Part shown: piece after piece, positions 479 to 52,628 of the stretch | Layout of the letters: every line of letters begins with the position of its first letter | Position numbering within the stretch: position 1 is the first letter of the stretch | Source of the DNA: Somniosus microcephalus | Lineage: Eukaryota | Reading direction: 5' to 3' | NCBI GenBank assembly: GCA_052327205.1 | Contig: CM126212.1 | Location: 16,244,001 to 16,308,000 of the forward strand | DNA length: 64,000 nt | Made by a program: the position numbers and the translations under genes | The notes under the pieces: generated by a model | Seen by the model: the letters and a program-made list of their open reading frames with translations, nothing else | Told to the model about the DNA's origin: nothing | Databases searched by the model: none

Positions 479-1494
479 CAAAACACAAACATTTATTATG
501 AGTTGATATAGTTGCCTACGCAAAATATTAAAATATTTAGAACACATAGTTCTGTAGTGATACCAGCAGAAGCTATTTCAAAAAACAAGGTCTGGTGCAG
601 TGACAGGCACTTCCCCAGGAGTTAAAGACTGACAAATGTGCCAGTGTAAGCCTTAACTCAAAGGCTCTCACTACAGTCAGACTTGCATGCTCGATAGGTT
701 GGATAATGCACTCTGTGAGTGGAATGGAAGTGTGCCAGAGAAGACCAATACTTAGCAGGAGGAAATATAACGTCTGATAGGACTTGTCTAAAATACACAG
801 AAACTACTCAACAAGTGATTTTATTTCACCCCATCTGCTAATTTACCTGACAGAGAGGGGAAAACGTGCCTCTTTTTCCAGGACAGTAACCTAATGGATC
901 CGCAATAAACCTTTGCTTTGGACACTTAACTCTTCAGTTGTCAAAAGGTGTTTCTATTTGTAAAACTGAATTTATATTTTGTTTTATTCCAACACCTTCC
1001 TGCAATTCTTTCCCCACTGACACGGATTAGTAAACATGCAAACTCTCAGCAGCCCAACGTGACTGGACACTACAAGGACGAATTCAACAAAGGACTCATT
1101 TCCAAACTGTACGCCAATCAGATGGCATCACAGAATGCAACGAGGGGCTTCACGTCTGTGATTTCCCACATAACAAGTCCTATATCTTGATTAGGCCATG
1201 AGGACAAAACACTGAATGGAACTGAGGTCTTTCCCTATCGGTCAGCTGTGGCTCAGTGGGCAGCACTCTCGCCTCTGAGTCAGAAGGTTGTGGGTTTAAG
1301 TCCCACTCCAGAGGCTTGAGCACAAAAATCTAGGCCAACACTCCAATGCAGTGCTGAGGGAGCGCTGCACTGTCGGAGGGGCCGTCTTTTGGATGAGATG
1401 TTAAACCGAGGCCTTGTCTGCTCTCTCAGGTGGACATAAAAGATCCCACGGCACTATTCCGAAGAAGAGCAGTGGAGTTATCCCCAGTGTCCTG

Positions 1495-1751
1495 TGTTGT
1501 GTATGTAATATGTGTGCTACTTTGAACCTATGGACAGGACTGCACTACTTGTTGGGCGTAGTGATACGCAGTACCACTCCTGGCCATAGGGGTATAAATA
1601 GTACTGTGGGTACTGATCTCCCCTCAGTTCCCGCCTGTGGGCATGAAGTAAAGACCTATGTATAGTCCCTACCTCCAACCAGTAAAGACCTGTTTGAGTT
1701 ATACGTTTAAGTCTTTGTGTTAATTGTTCAATACAATACACATACTTAACA
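1495..1751 (+). promoter_or_regulatory. 5' LTR of the chimeric element
   Basis: TG...CA ends, TATAAATA near 1593, and two AGTAAAGACCT copies (polyA-signal variant) at about 1648 and 1681. Confidence 0.85.
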
Positions 1752-2305
1752 CTGGCGACGAGTCTGATTCGGACCCTGCGGCAGTCACTCCACGGCAGCT
1801 TCGTCCACAGCCAGGACGTTGCAGAGAGGTTTCCACCCTCTCCACCCCACTGGAAGACATCCTGACCTCGGAGCCTCCATCGGCGACCGTCAGCTTCTTC
1901 TCCAGCTTGGTGGTGGGTAAGCCGTTGTCTGAGCCGGGCAGCGACGCGACAGGCAGTCGACCGCGTTGGCCGCACGAACGGGGCTGGGGGAGCTGGAGGA
2001 ATAGGGCGCGAGAGCCGCTTCGAGCGGGAGGCGTTTCAACAGAGCGATCGCATCTCCTGATAAGAGCCGAGAGCCGCTTCGCGATCCAGCGATCGCATCC
2101 GCTGATAAGGGCCGCACTCGGGCGATCGCGGCGAAGATAAGGGCCGCACTCGGGGGCTGAAGGGAGACGGCGTCGGGGGACGGGTGAAGACCGCCAAGCG
2201 CGGGAAAACCGCCATTTTGTGGGCGGAGGACGACGGCAAGAGCGGGAAGCCGCCATCTTTGATAACAAGTAAAGAAAATAAAATCTGAGAAATTGCAAAT
2301 CTACA

Positions 2306-4522
2306 ATGCCTAAACACGGGAATATTAGCACCTTTGATAGTGACCTCGAAGATTGGGCCATATATGTTGAAAGAGTAAAAAATTATTGTAAGGCCAATAA
2401 AATTCGTGACCAAGATAAAGCTCTAACATTATTAAATTTAATGGGTGCGAAGACATACGGGCAATTGAAACACCTGTTATCACCAGATGAACCGGCGGAT
2501 AAGACGTTCGATGAGATTGTTACTGTCCTGAAAGATCATCTAAACCCCACGCCGCTGATGCTAGCGGAACGATTTAAATTTTACGACAGAAGGCAGCTAC
2601 AGCATGAAAGCAATGCTGATTATTTGCTGGAATTGCGTAAATTAGCGAAATATTGCCAGTTTGGAACGGGACTGACAGAGGCACTTCGAGACAAATTTGT
2701 GTGTGGTTTATTTAAACAGGATACACAAAAGCGACTGCTAGAGGAGAATGAGCTGACGCTTGAGAAGGCGGTCACTATGGCAGCAGCACACGAAGCCGCA
2801 GCGAGAGGCACGGCAGTAATGCAGCTACGGTCACCGGAGCTCAGTACACACAAATTGGGTGTGAGTTCTGGCAAATGTTATCGTTGTGGAAAGACAACGC
2901 ATGATGAGAACCAGTGTTGGTTTAAAAACCAAGAATGTAGAACTTGTGGTAGGCTTGGACATATAGCTAGAGTATGCAGGTCAGGGAAGAAGACCAGCAA
3001 CAAGAAGTCACCGCAAGGAAAATACGCAAAGGTACACAAGGTGACCGAACAGGAGTCCGATTCAGACGCTAGCAGTAATGAACTGGCTAGCTTAAGCTGT
3101 AATGAACTGGCTAGCTTAAGAGTACTCAACGCTGGTAAGGGTGCAGACCTCCAGACAATTTGGGTCACTCTTCAGATAGAAGGAGTCCAAGTAAAACTGG
3201 AATTGGACACTGGATCGGCATTGACGGTCATAAATAAGAAAGATTACGGAAAGATATTCCAACATATTCCCCTACAGGATACGGGGATTATATTGAAAAC
3301 ATACACGGGGCAAAGAGTGTACCCCATCGGGAAAATAGAGGTTGCAGTGGTCCACAAGGGCGAAGACAGTCAAATAATGGACTTATATGTGATATCTGAA
3401 GGAGGTTCTCCACTACTAGGACGGGAGTGGATTAGGAAAATGAATATGGACTGGCATTTCCTACAAAAAATAACGAGTGAGAACTCGGTGAAGATAGTCG
3501 GCCCAGACTCTGGAACGGATGATGGTAAGCCCAACTCAGGTGCAAAAGACAAAGTTTCAGCACAGAATTCCACTGAGCAACAACAACATAGTTTAACTGT
3601 GGATTCTGAGTCTGGCAAGTCTACTGATGTGCCCATTTCTGAGGGACACCGGGCTCGAACTCAACTCCATTTCAAACTACAACAGCAATTAGAACAAATG
3701 CTTCGCCGTTGTGAGCAAGAGTTGAATGCAACGAAAGAGTTCTTTGATATAGAGTTGGAGAATCTGGAAAGACAACAGAAGCAGCTGATGGAGAAAATGG
3801 AGCAGGAGCACACAAAACGTCTGATGTCAGAGGAGTTAACGGTCAGCCAACTCCTGCATATGCTGAAGGACAGGACTCTGAAATGGGAAAAACTTGAACA
3901 CGAACTTCAATATTCAAACGAAAGGGGTTCGGAGCTCTCAAAGGTTATTGGAAGAGCTGAGGTGGCAACACAGACTGAGATGACTGCAACAGAGCAGCCC
4001 TTGGATGCCAAAAGTACGCTGACTCACGTCAACGTAGAACAACAGACCGCTGAAACAGCTGCTCCGGTAGAGGGATTGAATAGTCCGATCAATCAATCTC
4101 CAAAAGAAGTTGAAGTAGTAAAATCTCAAATGAGGTCATTAGTAAACGACTTGCTGAAAGCCCAGAAAAAGCTGGATGAAGAGGTACGCATGAAGAAGTC
4201 TCTTCAGGAAAGATGTCTGGACTTGGAACAAAAGCTGGCTAACGCCCAGCTGGGTATGGAGGAAATAGAAGACCCTCTCGCTGGCCTAGATCAGGACGAC
4301 ACCGAATATTACTATGTCCTGTCCTGCCCAACTTGTAACTTCGACTCCCACCATACAGAAATCATGGAGGAGCACCGAAAGTCTACGGAACATCGGGAGA
4401 AGGTGGCTCTACTACGGAAAAAGGAGGGAGAGAAGGAGGAACTGCGCATGCAGCTGGCAGCTGACAGTGGAGCCCAGAGAGTCTCCAAGAAGCAGAAAAG
4501 GAAAAGTCGAAACAGAAGATGA
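2306..4522 (+). CDS. Gag (two CCHC knuckles) + aspartic protease fused in frame to host-derived coiled-coil and C2H2 zinc-finger segments, 738 aa
   Basis: [14 protein letters not shown] and [14 protein letters not shown] knuckles; protease LELDTGS...LLGREW. No YLDD, RNaseH or DDE motifs. Tail resembles STK10/SLK, OPTN and DNAJC21. Confidence 0.9.
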
Positions 4523-5970
4523 CCCATCTGAACCATTATTACCTCTACCAGATCACACACGTGGTCCCTCCGAACGGAGCCAATTCAGTTCGGAAGTTCA
4601 AACTGTTAAATCCATGGAAGGACTATTGAATGAGTCACTCCAGCAACGTGAACCGACTACACCACAGAGATTGAATCTGTGAACTGTTTTCCGCAGAGAC
4701 TGAATCTGTGATCTGTTTTGACATGAAGTTATCTATGTATCTATGTTATTCTGTTATGTAAACCTGAAGTTATATATGTATATATGTTATTACGTTATGT
4801 TAAATGGGGAGATGACTGTAAAGCTAGGAAGGGAGGAACGTTGTGTATGTAATATGTGTGCTACTTTGAACCTATGGACAGGACTGCACTACTTGTTGGG
4901 CGTAGTGATACGCAGTACCACTCCTGGCCATAGGGGTATAAATAGTACTGTGGGTACTGATCTCCCCTCAGTTCCCGCCTGTGGGCATGAAGTAAAGACC
5001 TACGTGTAGTCCCTACCTCCAACCAGTAAAGACCTGTTTGAGTTATACGTTTAAGTCTTTGTGTTAATTGTTCAATACAATACACATACTTAACATCCTG
5101 GCCAATATTTATCCCTCAATCAACTTAACAAAAACAGATTACCTGTATCTGGTCATTATCACATTGCTGTTTGTGGGACCTTGCTGTGCGCAAATTGGCT
5201 GCCGCGTTTCCCACTGTTTACAACAGTGACTACACTCCAAATGTACTTCATTGGCTTCATCGGTGGTCATGAAAGGCGCTAGATAAATGCAAATCTTTCG
5301 TTCTTTCAGGCAGGGGGTAAGATTGCAAAGCAGCTCCAATTGGCATTAACAGAGATCTAGAAACAGGTTGCTTGATCACCCAGAAAATAATACATGGCAC
5401 AAAGAGGGAAGAGAAAATCTCAAACGGGAGAATGAAAATGGTTCCAGCTGATAAAAACGTTGTTATTTTTGCAACCAACCTCTTGCCACAACCCCGTTTT
5501 ATGTTTAGTAGACTCTGAAAGCTCACTTCAGCATGTCTTAACAAGCAGCTCGCTTTCAAGTAGTAAGAAATCAGCTGTCAATAATTTCCTATTTTTCCTC
5601 TTTAAAGTTGATGAATGCGGATTTCACTCTTCCGATAGGTTGAGCCCAATTCACGCACCTTTTCAAAACGCTGCATCTATCTCTGTAACATTTTGACAAT
5701 GCTATATTTGGCACAGGCGCGATGGGCCGAATGGCCTCTTTCTGTGCTGTATGATTTGAAAATAAGAGAGGATGAATACACCTCAAGACACTTTGGAGGT
5801 CGTTTTTGTCTTCACCATTTGAGCGGTAAACCAGTGAGGCCGATCGATGGAAATGAAAATCGGGGGGTTTCTACAGCGGGCCGGACGGGTTCTATAACAG
5901 CCGGACAATCCACTCCGCCAGAATACTGCCTGTGCACAATGCAGACGAAAATTTAATGCACAATATTAAT

Positions 5971-21339: not shown

Positions 21340-22238
21340 GGTACAGTAGTATAGTGATTATGTTACTGGACTAGTAATCCAGAGGCCTGGGCTAATAATC
21401 CAGAGAATGCAAGTTCAAATCCCACAATGGCAGCTTGAGAATCTCGATCAGTTTTTTTTTTAAATCTGGTAACAGAGTAAAGTGACCATGAAGGTGTTGG
21501 ATTGTCGTAAAAACCCAACTGGCTCACTAATGTCATTTAGGAAAGGAAACCTGCCATCCTTACCCGGTCTGGCCTATATGTGATTCCAGTCCCACGCCCG
21601 TTCACTGTGTTCATTAGGAAAGGAAATCTACCGTCCTGACCCGGCCTGGCCTATATGTGACTCCGGTCCCACGCCCGTTCACTGTGTTCATTAGGAAAGG
21701 AAATCTACCGTCCTTACCCGGTCTGGCCTATATGTGACTCCGGTCCCACGCCCGTTCACTGTGTTCATTAGGAAAGGAAATCTACCGTCCTTACCCGGTC
21801 TGGCCTATATGTGACTCCGGTCCCACACCCATTCACTGTGTTCATTAGGAAAGGAAATCTACCGTCCTTACCCGGTCTGGCCTATATGTGACTCTGGTCC
21901 CACGCCCGTTCACTGTGTTCATTAGGAAAGGAAGTCTACCGTCCTTACCCGGTCTGGCCTATATGTGACTCCGGTCCCACGCTGGATTCACTGTGTTCTT
22001 TAGGGAAGGAAACCTGTCGTCCTTACCCGGCCTGGCCTATATGTGACTCCAGTCCCACGCCAACGTGGTTGAATCTGAACGGCCCTCTGAAGCGGCCTAA
22101 CAAGATACTCAGTTGTATCAAAACCGCTTAGACTGCAACGATTCAAGAAGGCCCAATACCACCTTCACAGGCCAACCAGGAATGGGCAAAAAATGCCGGC
22201 CTTGCTAGCAATGCCCACACCCCGAGAATGGATAAAAA
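21340..22238 (+). mobile_element. tRNA-derived SINE with an internally amplified core
   Basis: Head ...gttactggactagtaatccagag...gttcaaatccc. Tail gggcaaaaaatgccggccttgctagcaatgcccac resembles the LINE tail at 62085-62135. Confidence 0.8.
21524..22060. repeat. 77-bp minisatellite x7
   Basis: Unit ttcactgtgttcattaggaaaggaaatctaccgtccttacccggtctggcctatatgtgactccggtcccacgcccg. Internal copies start at 21601, 21678, 21755, 21832 and 21909, with more diverged first and last units. Confidence 0.95.
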
Positions 22239-45369: not shown

Positions 45370-48300
45370 TGTAATGTATGTACCTTTAAGGGGGAGAACT
45401 ACTTTTTACAGCTCCTGTATCCTGTAGTACCGGCAGTGACCACACCTGTATATAAACCCTGAGTAGTGATCTGTACAGTCAGTTGCAGTTTGAACCCTCA
45501 TTCAGTAAACACCTGTTGATCGTTCCCTGCAGTCTTTTGTCTGATTATTGAAGGACACAACATTAAAATACCCGGATCTAACATTGGCGACGACAAAGAT
45601 TCGAACCTACCTGCAACTCTGCATCACCTCCCAGGGATTCGCTCCTGGAGAGCAGTGGAGGGAGGTCGAGTCCAGAAGCACAGGCATCGCAGGGGAGGCT
45701 GTCGAGAGCCAGGCTTGGCTTTCCAGTCACGGTGGTCCAGCGAAACGGGCTGGCAACAGGTACTGCGCAGACCCTTCCCGGACAGCGGCGGCTAGAGCCA
45801 ACCGAGCGGCACAGAAAAAGGCCGAGCAGCGTCGACGGGGGAGAGAGGGCAGAGCGCACAGGGCGCAGCTGGTGTTCAAGGGCTGAGCAGCGTTAACGGG
45901 GGAGAGAGGCGAGAGAGAGCAGAGCGCAGCCGGTGTTCAGGACCGAGCGGCGTCAACGGAGGAGAGAGGCGAGAGAGAGCAGAGCGCAGCCGGTGTTCAA
46001 GGGCCGAGCAGCATCAACAGGGGAGAGAGGCGCGCAGGAAAACGCGAGGCGCTGCCACTGCCACGAGGACTGCAGAGAGCGGCATTGGCAGCAGCGCAGG
46101 AGCAGCGCACGAAACCCACAGAGCGTCGCCATTTGCCACGAGGACCGCCGAGAGCGGCGTTGGCAGCAGCGCGGGAGACGCCATTTTAAGCCGCAGCGGG
46201 GAAGAAAGGAAAGCGCGGGAGACGCCATTTTAAGCTGCAGCGGGGAAGAAAGGAAAGCACGGGAGACGCCATTTTAAGCCAGTCTAACCACACCCAAAAA
46301 TGCCGAAGAGTGGCAGTATCACAGCGTTCGACAATGAAGTCGAAGATTGGACGACATATGTCGAACGCATAGAAGTACACTGCAAGGCGAATGAAGTGCC
46401 AGATGACAAGAAAGCGCTGGTATTGTTGAATTCAATGGGTGCAAAAACGTTTGGCTTACTACGAAACCTAGTAACCCCAGAGAAGCCAGTAGAAAAGGAT
46501 TTTGAAAACATAGTGTCAATCCTACAGGACCACTTAAACCCCACACCGCTGCTGATAGCAGAAAGATTTAAGTTTCACAAAAGGAACCAGCATAAAGAGG
46601 AAAGTAATGCTGAGTATTTAACGGAACTGCGCAAGCTATCGAAACACTGCCAGTTTGGAACGGGACTAGCAGATACTTTAAGGGACAAGTTTATGTGTGG
46701 GCTTCAAAGTGAAGGAACCCAGAAACGGCTTCTATCAGAAAAGGATCTTACGCTGGACAAGGCTTTCAGCATTGCAGTATCACACGAAGCAGCTGCACGG
46801 GGCGCTGCAGAGATACAACGGAGACCGCAAGAATATGGCACAAATGAAATGTTATACGGAACAGTGAAGTGCTATCGCTGCGACAGAACAACACACGACC
46901 ATAATGATTGCTGGTTCAAGGACAAAGTGTGCAGACAGTGTGGAAAAGTAGGACACATAGCAAGAGTCTGCAGGTCGGGAAAGAAAACCAGCAGCAAGAA
47001 ATCTCCACAGGAGAAGTACAAGAAGGTACATAAGGTGACGGAGAGTAGTTCAGACGAACAGAAGAGTGATACAGACTCCGGAAGCAAGGAGCTGGGTTGT
47101 CTGAAACTACATAATGTGATCAAAACGGAGGATCACCAAACTATCTGGGTCACGCTCAAGATAGCAGGAGTCCAAGTGAAAATGGAATTGGACACAGGAT
47201 CAGCCCTAACAGTCATAAACCGAAGGGACTACAAGCAACTATTCTCACATATACCCTTGAGAGATACAAAGATTGTCTTGAAGACGTACACGGGGCAAAA
47301 AGTCTACCCCAAAGGAAAAATAAGGGTGAACGTTATATATAATGGCAAGGAAACACCAAAAATGGACCTATATGTATTGCCAGATGGAGGACCACCACTA
47401 CTAGGACGTGAATGGATCCGGAAGATACAGCTAGATTGGCATTCCATACAAGCACTGACTGTAGATGCCAAAAAGGATGACGACGTCACACCTGGACGAC
47501 TGTCAAAAATGCTAACTGACGCACAAGAAGTGTTCCAGCAGGGACTCGGAACACTAAAAGGCATAACAGCGATGATCAAAATAGAGGAAAATGCAAGCCC
47601 AAAGTTTTTTAAGGCCAGACCGGTACCTTATGCGATCCGCCCAGCCGTCGAAGCAGAGCTGGAAGGTTTGGAACGTTCAGGAGTACTGTCCAAAGTGGAC
47701 TGGAGTGAGTGGGCTACACCCATCGTTCCTGTAATGAAGAGGTCGTTGAGTAATACGCCTGGGGAACCAAAGAAGGTTCGCATCCGTGGGGACTTTAAGG
47801 TGACAGTGAACCCAGTCCTTCACACTGTACAATATCCGCTTCCGCGGATTGAAGATATTTTCGCCTTGCTATCTGGAGGGAAACGCTTCACTAAGATTGA
47901 TCTGGCCCAGGCGTACCTGTAAATGGAGGTAGAAGAAGCCTCGAAACAGTACCTCACGATCAACACTCATAAAGGTCTCTACCAATACAACCGGCTGGTG
48001 TTCGGGGTAGCATCAGCTCCAGCTATTTGGCAAAGGGCAATGGAACAAGTCCTGCAAGGGATTCCAGGGACCCAGTGTTATTTGGACGACATCCTGGTCA
48101 CGGGTGAAAATGACAGTGATCACCTCGCCAACCTGGAGCAGGTGCTCACTAGATTGAAGGAATATGGGCTTCGAGCTAATCACCACAAATGCGAGTTTTT
48201 CCAGACGCAGATCTCGTATTGTGGCCACGTTATTGATAAAGAGGGGTTACATAAGTCCCCTGAAAAGATTGAGGCAGTAGTCAAGGCTCCAGCACCGGAA

Positions 48301-50576
48301 AATGTGTCACAACTGAGGTCGTTCCTCGGGCTGGTGAACTACTACCATAAGTTCTTGCCGAATTTGTCTACCGTACTACACCCACTGAACACCCTACTGC
48401 AAACGGGGGTACCATGGAAGTGGAGTGACAAATGTAAACGAGCTTTCCAGAACAGCAAAGCGTTGATCACATCAAAAGAGGTGTTGGCTCATTTCAACCC
48501 AGCACTACCAATTCGGTTGGCGTGTGATGCATCACCCTATGGCATTGGAGCGGTGCTGTCGCACAAATTCCCGGACGGCTCGGAGAGGCCAGTAGCCTTT
48601 GCGTCTTGGTCACTAACCTCAGCCGAACGAAACTACGCCCAGATTGACAGGGAGGCCCTCAGCCTAGTGTGGGGAGTGAAAAAGTTCAATCACTATCTGC
48701 ACGGGCAGAAGTTCACCTTGCTGACTGACCACCAACCACTTGTCTCCATCTTTAATCCAAAGAAGGGCGTTCCGGTGATGACTGCGCAACGGCTACAAAG
48801 ATGGTCCCTTTTTCTAGGGGCGCACCAATATGATATCGAGTATAAGGGCACGAAACAGCATGGAAACGCTGATGGGCTATCACGCCTGCCACTGCCTACT
48901 GTGGAGGAAGCACCAGCAGCGGATCCTGTCGAAATATTTCATTCGACTATAATTGAATGCTTGCCAGTAACTAACGCTGGTATAGAGAAGGAGACCCGAA
49001 ATGACCCGACACTGTCTCGGGTATATGATTTGACGGTGAAGGGATGGCCAGCACATGGCGACTCACTGTTGCCAGCATTCTCATCCAGAAGAGAACAGCT
49101 GTCAGTATGCCAGGGGATCTTGATGTGTGGATCCCGAGTGGTAATTCCACCCAAGTTAAGGGAGAGAGTGCTCAATGAGCTTCACGAAGGTCATCTGGGA
49201 GGGGTGAAAATGAAAAGCCTTGCTAGGGCTTATGTGTGGTGGCCGGGGATCGATCAGCAAATCGAGGACCTGACAAAGAGCTGCTCAGGATGCCAGAAGG
49301 TCCAAAATGCACCACCACATGCCCCTCTACACCCATGGGAGTGGCCCTCATCTCCATGGCAACAGGTGCATATTGATTTTGCTGGTCCATTCATGGACTC
49401 AATGTTTTTAATAGCCGTGGATGCGCACTCGAAATGGCCTGAGGTGATCAAAATGTCCTCCACCACCACAGAGAAAACTATTGCAGTCCTACGGACCATT
49501 TTTGCCAGGAACGGCTTGCCAGAGCAGATTTGCTCTGATAACGGACCACAGTTTGTGTCCGAAGAGTTTCGAAGATTTATGAAAAGGAATGGGGTAAGGC
49601 ATTACACATCCGCCCCGTATCATCCAGCCACAAATGGATTGGCTGAGAGGTTCGTACAAACCTTTAAAAAAGCAGTAAAGGCCATGTGCGATGATGACAT
49701 TCCACTGCAGCATAAGGTGGATAATTTCCTGTTAGCCTTCAGAAATGCGACACATGCAGTCACCAACCAGGCCCCGGCCATGATGTTCTTTAACCGAAGG
49801 TTGAGATCTCGTCTGGATTTGCTCAGACCAAATGTACGAAGAGATGTTGAGAATAAGCAATTCCAGCACATCAATGAGAAGCCGACAAGGAGCTTCAATG
49901 TAGGGCAACCAGTCTTGGCCCGCGACTGCCTAACAGAGAAATGGCAACCAGGAACGATATGCACAAGGCAGGGGCCACTAATGTACACAGTGGATGTTGG
50001 GGAGAACATTGTGAGACGCCATGCTGACCAGATCCTAGAGTCACAGGAACGAGTCAACCCCATGTCTCGGCCATACGTACCTGGTGAGGAACCCGATGTA
50101 CAGGTCGCATCTACCTCAGAAACAATAGCATTGGAAGCTGATGAATCAACTGACGACAGGGTGTTAGAATCGCCTCCGCACCAAGAGCGAGACACTCGGG
50201 AAAGGCGTTATCCAGAAAGAATCAGGAATCCGCCCCAAAGACTGAATTTATAAATAGACTATTTTCAGTTAATGTTGCATGTTAAAAGTGTTAATTGTAA
50301 TTAGTTTGATATTTAATTGTTAAATGAGTGTTATGGTACTGTTAATCTAAAAGGGGAGGAATTGTAATGTATGTACCTTTAAGGGGGAGAACTACTTTTT
50401 ACAGCTCCTGTATCCTGTCGTACCGGCAGTGACCACACCTGTATATAAACCCTGAGTAGTGATCTGTACAGTCAGTTGCAGTTTGAACCCTCATTCAGTA
50501 AACACCTGTTGATCGTTCCCTGCAGTCTTTTGTCTGATTATTGAAGGACACAACATTAAGATACTCGGATCTAACA
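45370..50576 (+). mobile_element. Full-length Ty3/Gypsy (Mag-type) LTR retrotransposon
   Basis: 214-bp LTRs at 45370-45583 and 50363-50576 with 3 differences counted by eye. TSD TGCCA (45365-45369, 50577-50581). PBS TGGCGACGA at 45585 and PPT aaaaggggaggaa. Confidence 0.97.
46300..50253 (+). pseudogene. gag-pol polyprotein (Gag, PR, RT, RNaseH, IN) with one in-frame premature TAA at 47920-47922
   Basis: ORFs 46300-47922 and 47923-50253 are in the same frame. Motifs: DTGS protease, YLDD RT, DAS RNaseH, HHCC and D..D..E integrase, C-terminus PPQRLNL. The stop replaces the conserved Q of AYLQ (CAA>TAA). Confidence 0.95.
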
Positions 50577-52628
50577 TGCCACTCAACACATCCCCATCAC
50601 TCTGCCATCCCTACCCTACTCCTGCACATCGTTACACCTCCACCCATCCCTCTCTATCTACATTATCACTTCCCCATCTCACTGGCCACCCCTCACACTC
50701 GTCCTCATCCCACTGCAAGCATACCAACTAACAACACACAAGGGTAGGCACTTGAGAGGTTTAGCCAATGTCCAGGTGAAGTTTCTGGTAATGTGTTGTC
50801 ATACAGTGAAATCTATATTTTCAACACTGCCCCTCATTGGACAGATCTGTGCTCACTTTGAGAAGTGTCTTACTGAGTTCCAGTGAATGTTGGGACATAA
50901 CTTCCCCCCCACCCCCCTGTAGTGATGAGTGTGCATGGAATGGCTTGGACATTAAAGGGATGCTTTACGGTGCTGGTGTGGGATGGTGTCCACCTGGTGC
51001 GGGATGGTGTCCACCTGGTGCATCATGTGGCAGCCAGGGTTAACAGCGTCAAGTGAAGTAAATCTGGCCATGGCGATGCCATCGCTCGCCTCCTGGGCAG
51101 CAGCGTTGTCGGGGGCTGATGCCCTGTGTCCTGTGCAGCATCAGGTGATGTCAGAGAAGATTGGTGATGTTGTCAGTGATGTTGGTGTGCCTGGTGATAT
51201 TGGTGTTGGGGCTGATCGTGGAAGGATTCGGAGGACCACGGTCTGATTTTCCCAAGGGCACCGATGTTGTTGCAATAGATGGCAGCTGCAGGTGAGATGA
51301 CAGAAGCGATCTGTCAATGGTGAGAGAGGTTGTGCCAATGAGGTGGCACTGGACATACAGTTGGCTCTAAACACTTGTAAGCTAAAGAAATCTCTATATG
51401 TCTTACAAATGCAGTAACCAACAGTTTCTGCGCTCTGAAACTGACCATCTGCAACATGGCATCCTTTACACCACTTCTGCAGCTGTCAGCTTATCAGATA
51501 CATCAGAGCAGACTCAACTCATGCCAGGGTGAGCTGGCGTGTTCCCCGAGCAGCGGGTAACCCGTGGGGGAGAACGTAAAATTGGAAGGAAGCCTCAAAA
51601 TAGTCTTAAATTGGCTCTTAACAAGCCATTTAATGAGCTCAATTGTCTCCCCCACCACTTGGTGTTGGGTCAGTTCTCCGCTGACAGACCCGACACCTGG
51701 GAGACTCGCGTGGAGGCGGGTTGACAGCGGGTTTCCTACCCGCTGTCAATCTTTGCTATTTTGACAGCGGACCCGCCTCCAAACCTGCCCTCTGAGCGCT
51801 GGCAAAATTCTGGCCTTCGTGTAAGGTTTTGTGCACAGTGTTTGAAATGGCACTTTCCACAACGTGAGGTGCTTCCCAAATTGGATTTGTGCCATGCCTC
51901 ATGGGCCACACGAGAAACATCTGCAAAGGTGAAGAGCGTGCAACATTCATCTAGTCCCTGATAGCAGGACATTTCTTCCTCATTCGCAGGCGGGTAAAAA
52001 GGCGGTGGGTGACTGCACTGGTTGGGTTGGCGACCTGCCTCCGTTCAGTTTGCACCCGTGCTTTTACTGCAGGGTGGGCTTCAGCCCCACAGAGATACAC
52101 CCTCCTTGGGTGCAACTTTGGCAGCAAGACCTCCAACCCGCCAGCATCAAGGGGGAGTAGTGTTGCCCACAAGTTTCCGCTACGCCATCAACGATTAGTC
52201 CATTTTTCTGCTACTGCCATAACCATCCCCCTTTACGCTGAGCTGCAGCCCTTCAACAGCTGCTGCCTCACTGGATTTTGTGCTAAGTGTTCAACAGGCC
52301 AAGCTCTCTGCGCAAGCTATTCCTCTGCCTGGTCCTTCCCAAGGTACAGACGCAAGCATGGCCCCAATTCTGCCGGGATCAGAGTATGTACAAAGGTCCT
52401 ACTCACCAACATGTTGGAGCTGTGGCAGGATACTGCTCCACATTACCCATGTTATTGTTACCACTGACATTCATTTTTAATCCACTGGACCAAGCTTTCT
52501 CTGGCTTCAAGGGTTAAGTTACTTTTCCCTGACCCGGATTAAGTTACGAGGAGAGATTACACAAATTAGGGTTGTATTCCCTAGAAGTTAGAAGGTCAAG
52601 GAGTGATCTAATTGAAGTTTTCAAGGTA

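Follow-up and report, generated by a model that had tools for sequence, protein, structure and literature searches.

The window analysed here is a 64,000-nt stretch of the Somniosus microcephalus genome (assembly GCA_052327205.1, contig CM126212.1, positions 16,244,001-16,308,000, forward strand). By its structure, the element studied in it is a non-autonomous Ty3/Gypsy LTR retrotransposon of about 3.6 kb in which host-derived pieces follow Gag and protease. Its features and those of a relative, in window coordinates, are:

1490..1494, plus strand: 5' target-site duplication TCCTG, identical to the five bases at 5096-5100
1495..1751, plus strand: 5' LTR, TG...CA, 257 bp, with 3 mismatches to the 3' LTR
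1753..1762, plus strand: primer-binding site TGGCGACGAG, immediately 3' of the LTR; placed likewise in other copies, with single-base variants
2306..4522, plus strand: single open frame of 738 aa (frame and translation), with Gag, protease and captured cargo
2306..2977, plus strand: Gag, a capsid-like region and two CCHC knuckles (zf-CCHC E 0.003, below cut-off)
3164..3448, plus strand: aspartic protease, DTG motif at residues 301-303 (PF13975 E 0.003, below cut-off)
3475..3822, plus strand: STK10-derived pieces, parts of exons 9, 11 and 12 (linker and PKK coiled coil; PF12474 above cut-off)
3815..4266, plus strand: OPTN-derived piece, about aa 226-384, four host exons joined (protein and DNA matches)
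4256..4273, plus strand: junction between OPTN and a remnant of STK10 exon 8, encoding MEEIED (DNA match to donors)
4274..4506, plus strand: DNAJC21-derived module from at least three host exons, with exon junctions at 4362/4363 and 4479/4480; 3' end approximate
4325..4393, plus strand: C-x2-C-x12-H-x5-H finger, ligands kept, loop remodelled, net charge -3
4461..4467, plus strand: 7-nt insertion relative to sister L061 (DNA alignment with sisters)
4472..4519, plus strand: basic C-terminal tail, 9 K/R of 16 residues; motif also in Carcharodon DNAJC21
4514..4634, plus strand: end of STK10 exon 8 and start of exon 9, out of frame, 85-92% to host exons
4635..4682, plus strand: remnant of an integrase C-terminus ending in PQRLNL, an ending shared with the Pol at 47923-50253
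4823..4838, plus strand: polypurine tract adjoining the 3' LTR
4839..5095, plus strand: 3' LTR, first base C and not T (starts CG in the window copy)
5096..5100, plus strand: 3' target-site duplication TCCTG, pairing with 1490..1494
45370..50577, plus strand: related Ty3/Gypsy element, Gag-PR-RT-RNase H-integrase in a single Gag-Pol frame with one in-frame stop at about 47920

The two LTRs are 98.8% identical, and the primer-binding site presumably matches the 3' end of tRNA-Ser. Pfam profiles and frame comparison found no reverse transcriptase (RT), RNase H or integrase in the 738-aa frame, hence the element is regarded as a non-autonomous derivative. Its Gag can be aligned with that of the RT-bearing element at 46300, and a protease homologous to its own passes the Pfam cut-off in that relative, which is near-complete, has LTRs 98.6% identical and carries RT, RNase H and integrase in Ty3/Gypsy order. 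No blastn match was found between the LTRs of the two elements, and the one at 45370..50577 is taken here as a relative, not necessarily the helper. Two knuckles and a single frame resemble the Mag clade of Ty3/Gypsy, to which the element may belong. The window also holds a 77-bp tandem array (21460-22061, about seven copies, 93% matches).

The end of the frame (4256-4522, residues 651-738) carries the zinc ligands C674, C677, H690 and H696, whose codons start at 4325, 4334, 4373 and 4391. The first-pass annotation had read this segment as an acidic run, a JAZ/U1-type finger and a basic tail captured from DNAJC21 and fused to Gag. The description is accurate: spacing and all four ligands are kept while the loop has diverged, and the module closes the one frame that opens with Gag at 2306. 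The HMM check it proposed failed for this finger, which gave no PF12171 or PF12874 match up to E 1 in the Pfam profiles, though a sister finger scores above both cut-offs (40.6 and 32.7 bits, respectively); the sole Pfam match was PF23330 (E 0.066). None of 163 candidates reached E<=1 in a search of 5.8 billion proteins, 1.84 billion representative proteins yielded four weak matches, none of them DNAJC21, and an Atlas search returned generic zf-met/JAZ clusters at 0.93.

Direct comparison with the proposed donor bore the annotation out. The window finger and Carcharodon DNAJC21 share 22 of 51 residues (pairwise E 8e-10), including KS, HRE and V-LL besides the ligands, and the DNA is 81% identical to the host DNAJC21 exon over 101 nt (E 3e-23 against the 3-kb locus). 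The module is colinear with that of sister elements and aligns at the DNA level without gaps across the finger. A host-like sister finger used as query retrieved 517 proteins; the best 120 matches listed are DNAJC21 by name or unnamed finger-bearing proteins, most with the DNAJC21 domain set, and the best among those listed is Carcharodon DNAJC21 (81%). A pattern demanding a splice acceptor inside the finger had one genome hit, the 126-nt host DNAJC21 exon at G000:C1:4792793-4792918, bounded by AG and GT. This exon is 98.4% identical over its full length to sisters L109 and L112. Since the sisters join it exactly at both splice sites, the module was copied from spliced DNAJC21 RNA; on these alignments, finger and basic tail descend from at least three exons of the host gene. 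The attribution holds for only part of the acidic run, the first residues of which (MEEIED, 4256-4273) come from the OPTN/STK10 junction, and for most of the tail, the last few codons before the stop being supplied by the out-of-frame STK10 piece.

A genome search with PF12171 (150 scored of 21,276 candidates) gave 30 loci, and 29 belong to sister elements whose finger is host-like; 21,276, like the 16,692 of another search, counts first-look candidates and not copies. A route through PF21884 was abandoned, as it led, by our reading of the exon, to DNAJC2 and not to DNAJC21. Within the host gene, two upstream exons lie at G000:C1:2.65-2.67 Mb and the finger exon at C1:4.79 Mb, with 500-N gaps nearby; exons 5-7 and 9 were not located in the assembly. 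The exon order is inconsistent with the minus strand, which suggests a scaffolding problem, and because of it and the missing exons the comparison was confined to one of the three captured exons. A 278-aa protein of Scyliorhinus torazame (P0129) consists of the DNAJC21 finger half alone and is apparently a partial gene model rather than an element.

The available part of PMC6710477 describes DNAJC21 as a protein with two fingers and a role in 60S maturation, and reports a c.983+1 splice variant. Compared with its donor, the first DNAJC21 C2H2 finger (PF12171/PF12874), the window finger has a replaced loop and reversed charge and is not accompanied by a J domain. It lacks the near-invariant Phe of the family (now Ser), an Asn and two Lys, and shows neither the core aromatic residue nor the basic surface that distinguish the first DNAJC21 finger.

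The rest of the cargo comes from other host genes, and its closest protein matches are shark proteins. Introns are missing at exact splice sites in the OPTN, STK10 and DNAJC21 pieces, and switch points share about 4-14 nt (raw counts at junctions with both partners in hand). The OPTN piece (residues 504-654) is 72% identical to Pristiophorus optineurin and 81-92% to the exons of host OPTN at C17:85.9 Mb. Longer sisters join six host exons where the window copy joins four; OPTN 131-225 is deleted in the window type, which is the most abundant subfamily. A longer OPTN insert without DNAJC21 was seen in L132-L139 and L157-L159. In L158 its boundaries, 8 nt past an acceptor on one side and close to a later exon's end on the other, would possibly suit a second circle. 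The host OPTN gene shows an apparent short frameshift pair at one exon junction near C17 85885350, perhaps an assembly error. In five sisters (L108-L111, L113) the slot of OPTN is taken by a 219-aa myosin-tail-type coiled coil (PF01576, 57 bits), a fourth donor that we take to resemble CGNL1.

The STK10 piece (residues 388-509) is 77% identical to a shark STK10 protein and 86-93% to the exons of host STK10 at C8:167.2 Mb, with an exact exon 11/12 junction; exon numbers presumably follow the human gene. A query with STK10 aa 480-616 had 98 matches among 150 scored candidates; five resemble host exons or paralogues, and most others cross two introns uninterrupted. Four fully read copies (L153-L156) consist of Gag-protease, STK10 from mid exon 9 through exons 10, 11 and 12, then exon 8, then exon 9 up to the starting point with a 14-nt overlap, and finally an integrase tail. 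In L153 identity of the STK10 pieces to the host is 98.4-100%, and the junction from exon 12 to exon 8 lies at a real donor and acceptor; a non-colinear junction of a real donor to an upstream acceptor is likewise present in L112 and L110. No tandem duplication of host STK10 was found within the 90 kb fetched. Exactly one turn with a back-splice junction is the expected outcome of copying a circular RNA, so a circRNA was most likely captured here, the founder-type STK10 cargo being one complete turn of an exon circle. The window copy has lost the back-splice junction itself and retains the permuted exon order, its piece at 4514..4634 being, by that order, the permuted end of the circle. The junction is also present in element transcripts and hence is not diagnostic of host circle RNA.

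According to genome-wide pattern searches, the family numbers thousands of copies, and the finger is one among several modules that it has captured. The 42-nt loop of the window finger was matched exactly at 3,196 genomic places (control 0); with a pattern built from the flanks alone, 3,086 finger modules were counted (control 0). Among the first 100 of the latter a hand count gave 62 of the window type, 20 intermediate and 18 host-like; in 99 the three ligands that the listing shows are intact. All 30 loci fetched from the module list keep the four ligand codons; one of them has a stop inside the finger. The subfamilies carry STK10 only (the founder type), STK10 and OPTN (L157-L159), STK10 and DNAJC21 (L112, L118), STK10, DNAJC21 and the myosin-tail-type coiled coil (L108-L111, L113), OPTN and DNAJC21, or the compact window-type cargo. 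As the finger is absent from the founder-type and OPTN-only subfamilies, it is dispensable there.

LTR pairs are 98.8-100% identical in 16 of 20 window-type copies fetched, a sample biased towards young elements because the copies were picked for identity; the corresponding values are 97.6-100% in 15 of 20 sisters and 98.2-99.6% in all seven early types. By these figures and the pattern counts, the family is young and very abundant. Gag dS between the window type and its sisters is 0.83-1.05, against a cargo dS of 0.11-0.21, and founder and near-sister Gag differ by a dS of 0.08. The high Gag dS, the low cargo dS and LTRs that align only in part between window type and sisters imply that the cargo moved onto another Gag frame. 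Three arrangements are recorded separately: four window-type copies in tandem with 3,368-bp spacing (G000:C3:263215394-263225827), two loci on C2 that lie 68 Mb from each other but share flanks and target duplication (L094 and L095, a segmental duplication or assembly duplicate), and a single copy (L122) whose cargo runs on in frame into a LINE reverse-transcriptase frame, for a total of 1,413 aa.

The element family is transcribed. In two RNA runs with one species label (X7 and X8), 12,753 of 16.7 million and 11,440 of 14.4 million records align at >=93% and cover all 30 bins of the element, the reads including sister subfamilies. First mates of X7 lie mostly on the minus strand (342 vs 22 over the finger bin), which in the usual stranded libraries indicates sense RNA; X8 has no strand bias. 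At window position 3456, over 120 reads in each of the runs X7, X8 and X6 leave the element after the protease and go on as Pol-like sequence, which suggests a transcribed relative whose protease ends similarly, a candidate helper.

Selection on the frame was evaluated by pairwise Nei-Gojobori counts between real copies with private changes masked; the pairs share ancestry and are not independent. Gag (dN/dS 0.09-0.19), protease (0.16-0.31) and the OPTN piece (0.33-0.45 against five sister copies, p 0.002-0.024) evolve, by these counts, under purifying selection. Against host exons the OPTN value is 0.45 (p 0.01), probably too high because of the apparent local frameshift pair in the host assembly. 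The STK10 pieces show no significant constraint (dN/dS 0.5-2, p>0.25).

The finger behaves differently within itself. Compared with a host-like copy, 15 of 19 non-ligand residues differ and none of the four ligands does (one-sided Fisher p 0.008), so the annotation's view that ligand retention hints at selection is borne out as non-random; the H696 codon carries a synonymous change. Residues invariant among L088-L107 are uninformative here, these copies having been picked for identity. In the 12-codon loop, a region chosen after inspection and assessed by pairwise counts alone, 16-19 non-synonymous differences stand against 0.2-1.1 synonymous ones, and loop pN is higher than cargo-wide pS (p about 1e-6), while the finger shows no excess of synonymous change over other regions. 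For the DNAJC21 module as a whole the result is borderline (dN/dS 2.1-4.8, p 0.007-0.15 across seven pairs), and the last step, from L169 to the window, has a non-synonymous to synonymous ratio of 16.25:2.75, near the site ratio of 57.7:11.3. Overall, the loop is probably under positive selection. An origin of the loop by compensated indels was dropped, since intermediate fingers, found in subfamilies between the host-like and the window type, share codons in register.

Along the path to the window type the net charge of the finger falls from +4/+5 through +3 and 0/-1 to -3, and in another sister lineage it reaches +6/+8. The basic tail was brought into frame as the C-terminus by the 7-nt insertion at 4461..4467, and intermediate subfamilies end in the same DNAJC21 tail. 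All 12 element frames inspected have 6-10 K/R among their last 16 residues, drawn from three sources (the integrase tail, a frameshifted integrase tail and the DNAJC21 tail), which indirectly supports a role of the tail in localisation and would fit nucleic-acid binding as well. According to models only, the window finger would form a finger fold: AlphaFold2 with a 17-sequence alignment, leaning on host sequences, gave a hairpin-helix finger at pLDDT 91-95, and folding without alignment gave the helix alone and no hairpin. A fold search with the finger model had no match at E<=0.001, and its nearest hits include U1 snRNP chains and JAZ ZF3.

The best overall explanation, to which we give an even chance of being right, is that the family captured host RNAs by template switching and that the cargo serves the element in place of Pol. 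The RT-RNase H-integrase region would have been replaced by pieces of host RNA through switching at short shared sequences, with the founder copying one full turn of the STK10 circular RNA. Descendants would have added spliced DNAJC21, OPTN or myosin-tail-type coiled-coil pieces and then trimmed them, and transfer of the cargo to a different LTR-Gag-protease frame would have produced the window subfamily. The element would be copied in trans by an autonomous relative, its Gag-PR-cargo polyprotein presumably being made and co-assembled into particles. In our working model the cargo most likely stands in for Pol and serves the element rather than the host: the long coiled-coil stalk, with interchangeable donors, may aid oligomerisation of the fusion, the basic C-terminal tail may take over from the integrase tail in nuclear targeting or nucleic-acid binding, and the finger may be a zinc-held protein-contact surface whose loop was redesigned in conflict with a host factor or helper element. 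The observations on which this builds are the architecture, donors, splice and back-splice junctions, microhomologies, copy number, youth, transcription and dN/dS pattern. A bolder version, possible yet short of probable, is that the lineage built a new functional module from serial copies of host RNAs, circular ones included and perhaps preferred, that the resulting advantage led to thousands of copies, and that the finger is the front line of a conflict. If true, an accessory gene has been caught while forming, with all stages present in one genome.

Several other readings were weighed against template-switch capture of a useful cargo. The cargo might matter merely as an open frame of suitable RNA length, for stability or packaging in cis, with the finger decaying. 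The near-neutral STK10 pieces, the repeated deletion and swapping of cargo, the loss of the core Phe, the missing hairpin in single-sequence folding and the lack of a Pfam finger match agree with this, but we think it unlikely given the OPTN dN/dS of 0.33-0.45, the unchanged ligands beside 15 changed residues among 19 neighbours (p 0.008), the synonymous change in the H696 codon, a loop pN exceeding cargo pS, and the carriage of the cargo onto a new Gag frame. We likewise regard as improbable that the captured pieces are decoys which blunt a host defence against the particle by binding the corresponding host proteins or their partners (optineurin and autophagy, STK10/SLK coiled coils, DNAJC21 partners). 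Optineurin acts in selective autophagy, OPTN is the most constrained cargo piece, longer sisters retain DDSFVEIRM, which we take to be its LC3-binding motif, and quick change of the finger surface fits a conflict. However, the most abundant subfamily lost this motif with the deletion of OPTN 131-225, the N-terminal region and ubiquitin-binding end of OPTN are absent from the copies read, and an unrelated coiled coil occupies the same slot in another subfamily.

The function proposed in the first-pass annotation, RNA binding added to the Gag fusion by the finger, fared worse. JAZ/U1-type spacing, the alignment-based model (pLDDT 91-95), the presence of U1 snRNP chains and JAZ ZF3 among the nearest solved folds (with no match at E<=0.001) and the more basic finger of one sister lineage (+6 to +8) speak for it. 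The drop in net charge from +4/+5 to -3 and the loss of conserved Lys, together with Phe and Asn, argue against RNA binding, and two CCHC knuckles are already present in Gag. It is therefore unlikely that the window-type finger binds RNA, and as an account of the whole fusion this model seems to us very doubtful. Still harder to credit is a Gag fusion domesticated by the host as a restriction factor or new host gene. Its open frame, transcription and purifying selection would suit such a gene, but the family has thousands of copies scattered over the genome, whose LTRs are nearly identical and whose target duplications are separate, not the single or few fixed, immobile loci typical of domesticated gag genes, so that constraint acted between rounds of transposition and not at one locus.

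Gene capture by LTR elements is already known. The accessible text of Tan et al. 2016 (PMC5131818) describes LTR-mediated retrocopies in animals in which, as here, pieces of spliced mRNA replace the internal ORF, switch points show microsimilarity, several parent genes contribute and further rounds of retroposition follow. That text deals with few loci per species and protein constraint in two or three, and the word 'circular' does not occur in it, whereas here one subfamily has more than 3,000 copies, cargo in frame with an intact Gag-protease, and purifying and probably positive selection. Maize Bs1, as summarised in the same text, is an LTR element with pieces of three host genes, partly in frame; it has one to five copies with identical switch points throughout, unlike the ladder of subfamilies, serial capture, deletion and Gag swap seen here. 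CircRNA-derived pseudogenes such as those of mouse circRFWD2 (Dong et al. 2016, PMC4897178, as far as its available part goes) also combine a back-splice junction in genomic copies with LTR flanks; 33 high-confidence copies are given and the mechanism is left open. In contrast, the present family has a full circle turn in a complete LTR element, in frame and with both switch points visible. Shark single-exon OPTN copies flanked by LINEs or LTRs (bioRxiv 10.1101/2024.09.09.611499) resemble it in that intronless OPTN lies beside LTRs; the available main text reads them as host retrogenes, does not mention STK10, DNAJC21 or CGNL1, and describes no Gag fusion.

Acutely transforming retroviruses with gag-onc fusions offer a further parallel: host exons replace pol in frame with gag, and the viruses are helper-dependent. 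The present family differs in having no env, in its Ty3/Gypsy ancestry and germ-line amplification, and in a non-catalytic coiled-coil cargo instead of an activated oncogene. Our search of the accessible literature found no report of this family or of in-frame circRNA cargo in a Gag fusion; it is thus the scale, the in-frame circRNA cargo and the selection pattern for which no report was found.

The family offers a mechanism for the retroposition of circular RNA, left open in the accessible part of PMC4897178, namely a full turn of the circle between two template switches in an LTR element. It also provides a near-complete series of stages, from the uptake of host domains by a mobile element to their trimming and retuning, and the benefit of captured genes to the element becomes testable on thousands of copies. 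Intronless 'duplicates' of OPTN, STK10 or DNAJC21 in such genomes may be transposon cargo and not host retrogenes, and mistaking one for the other would affect gene-family counts.
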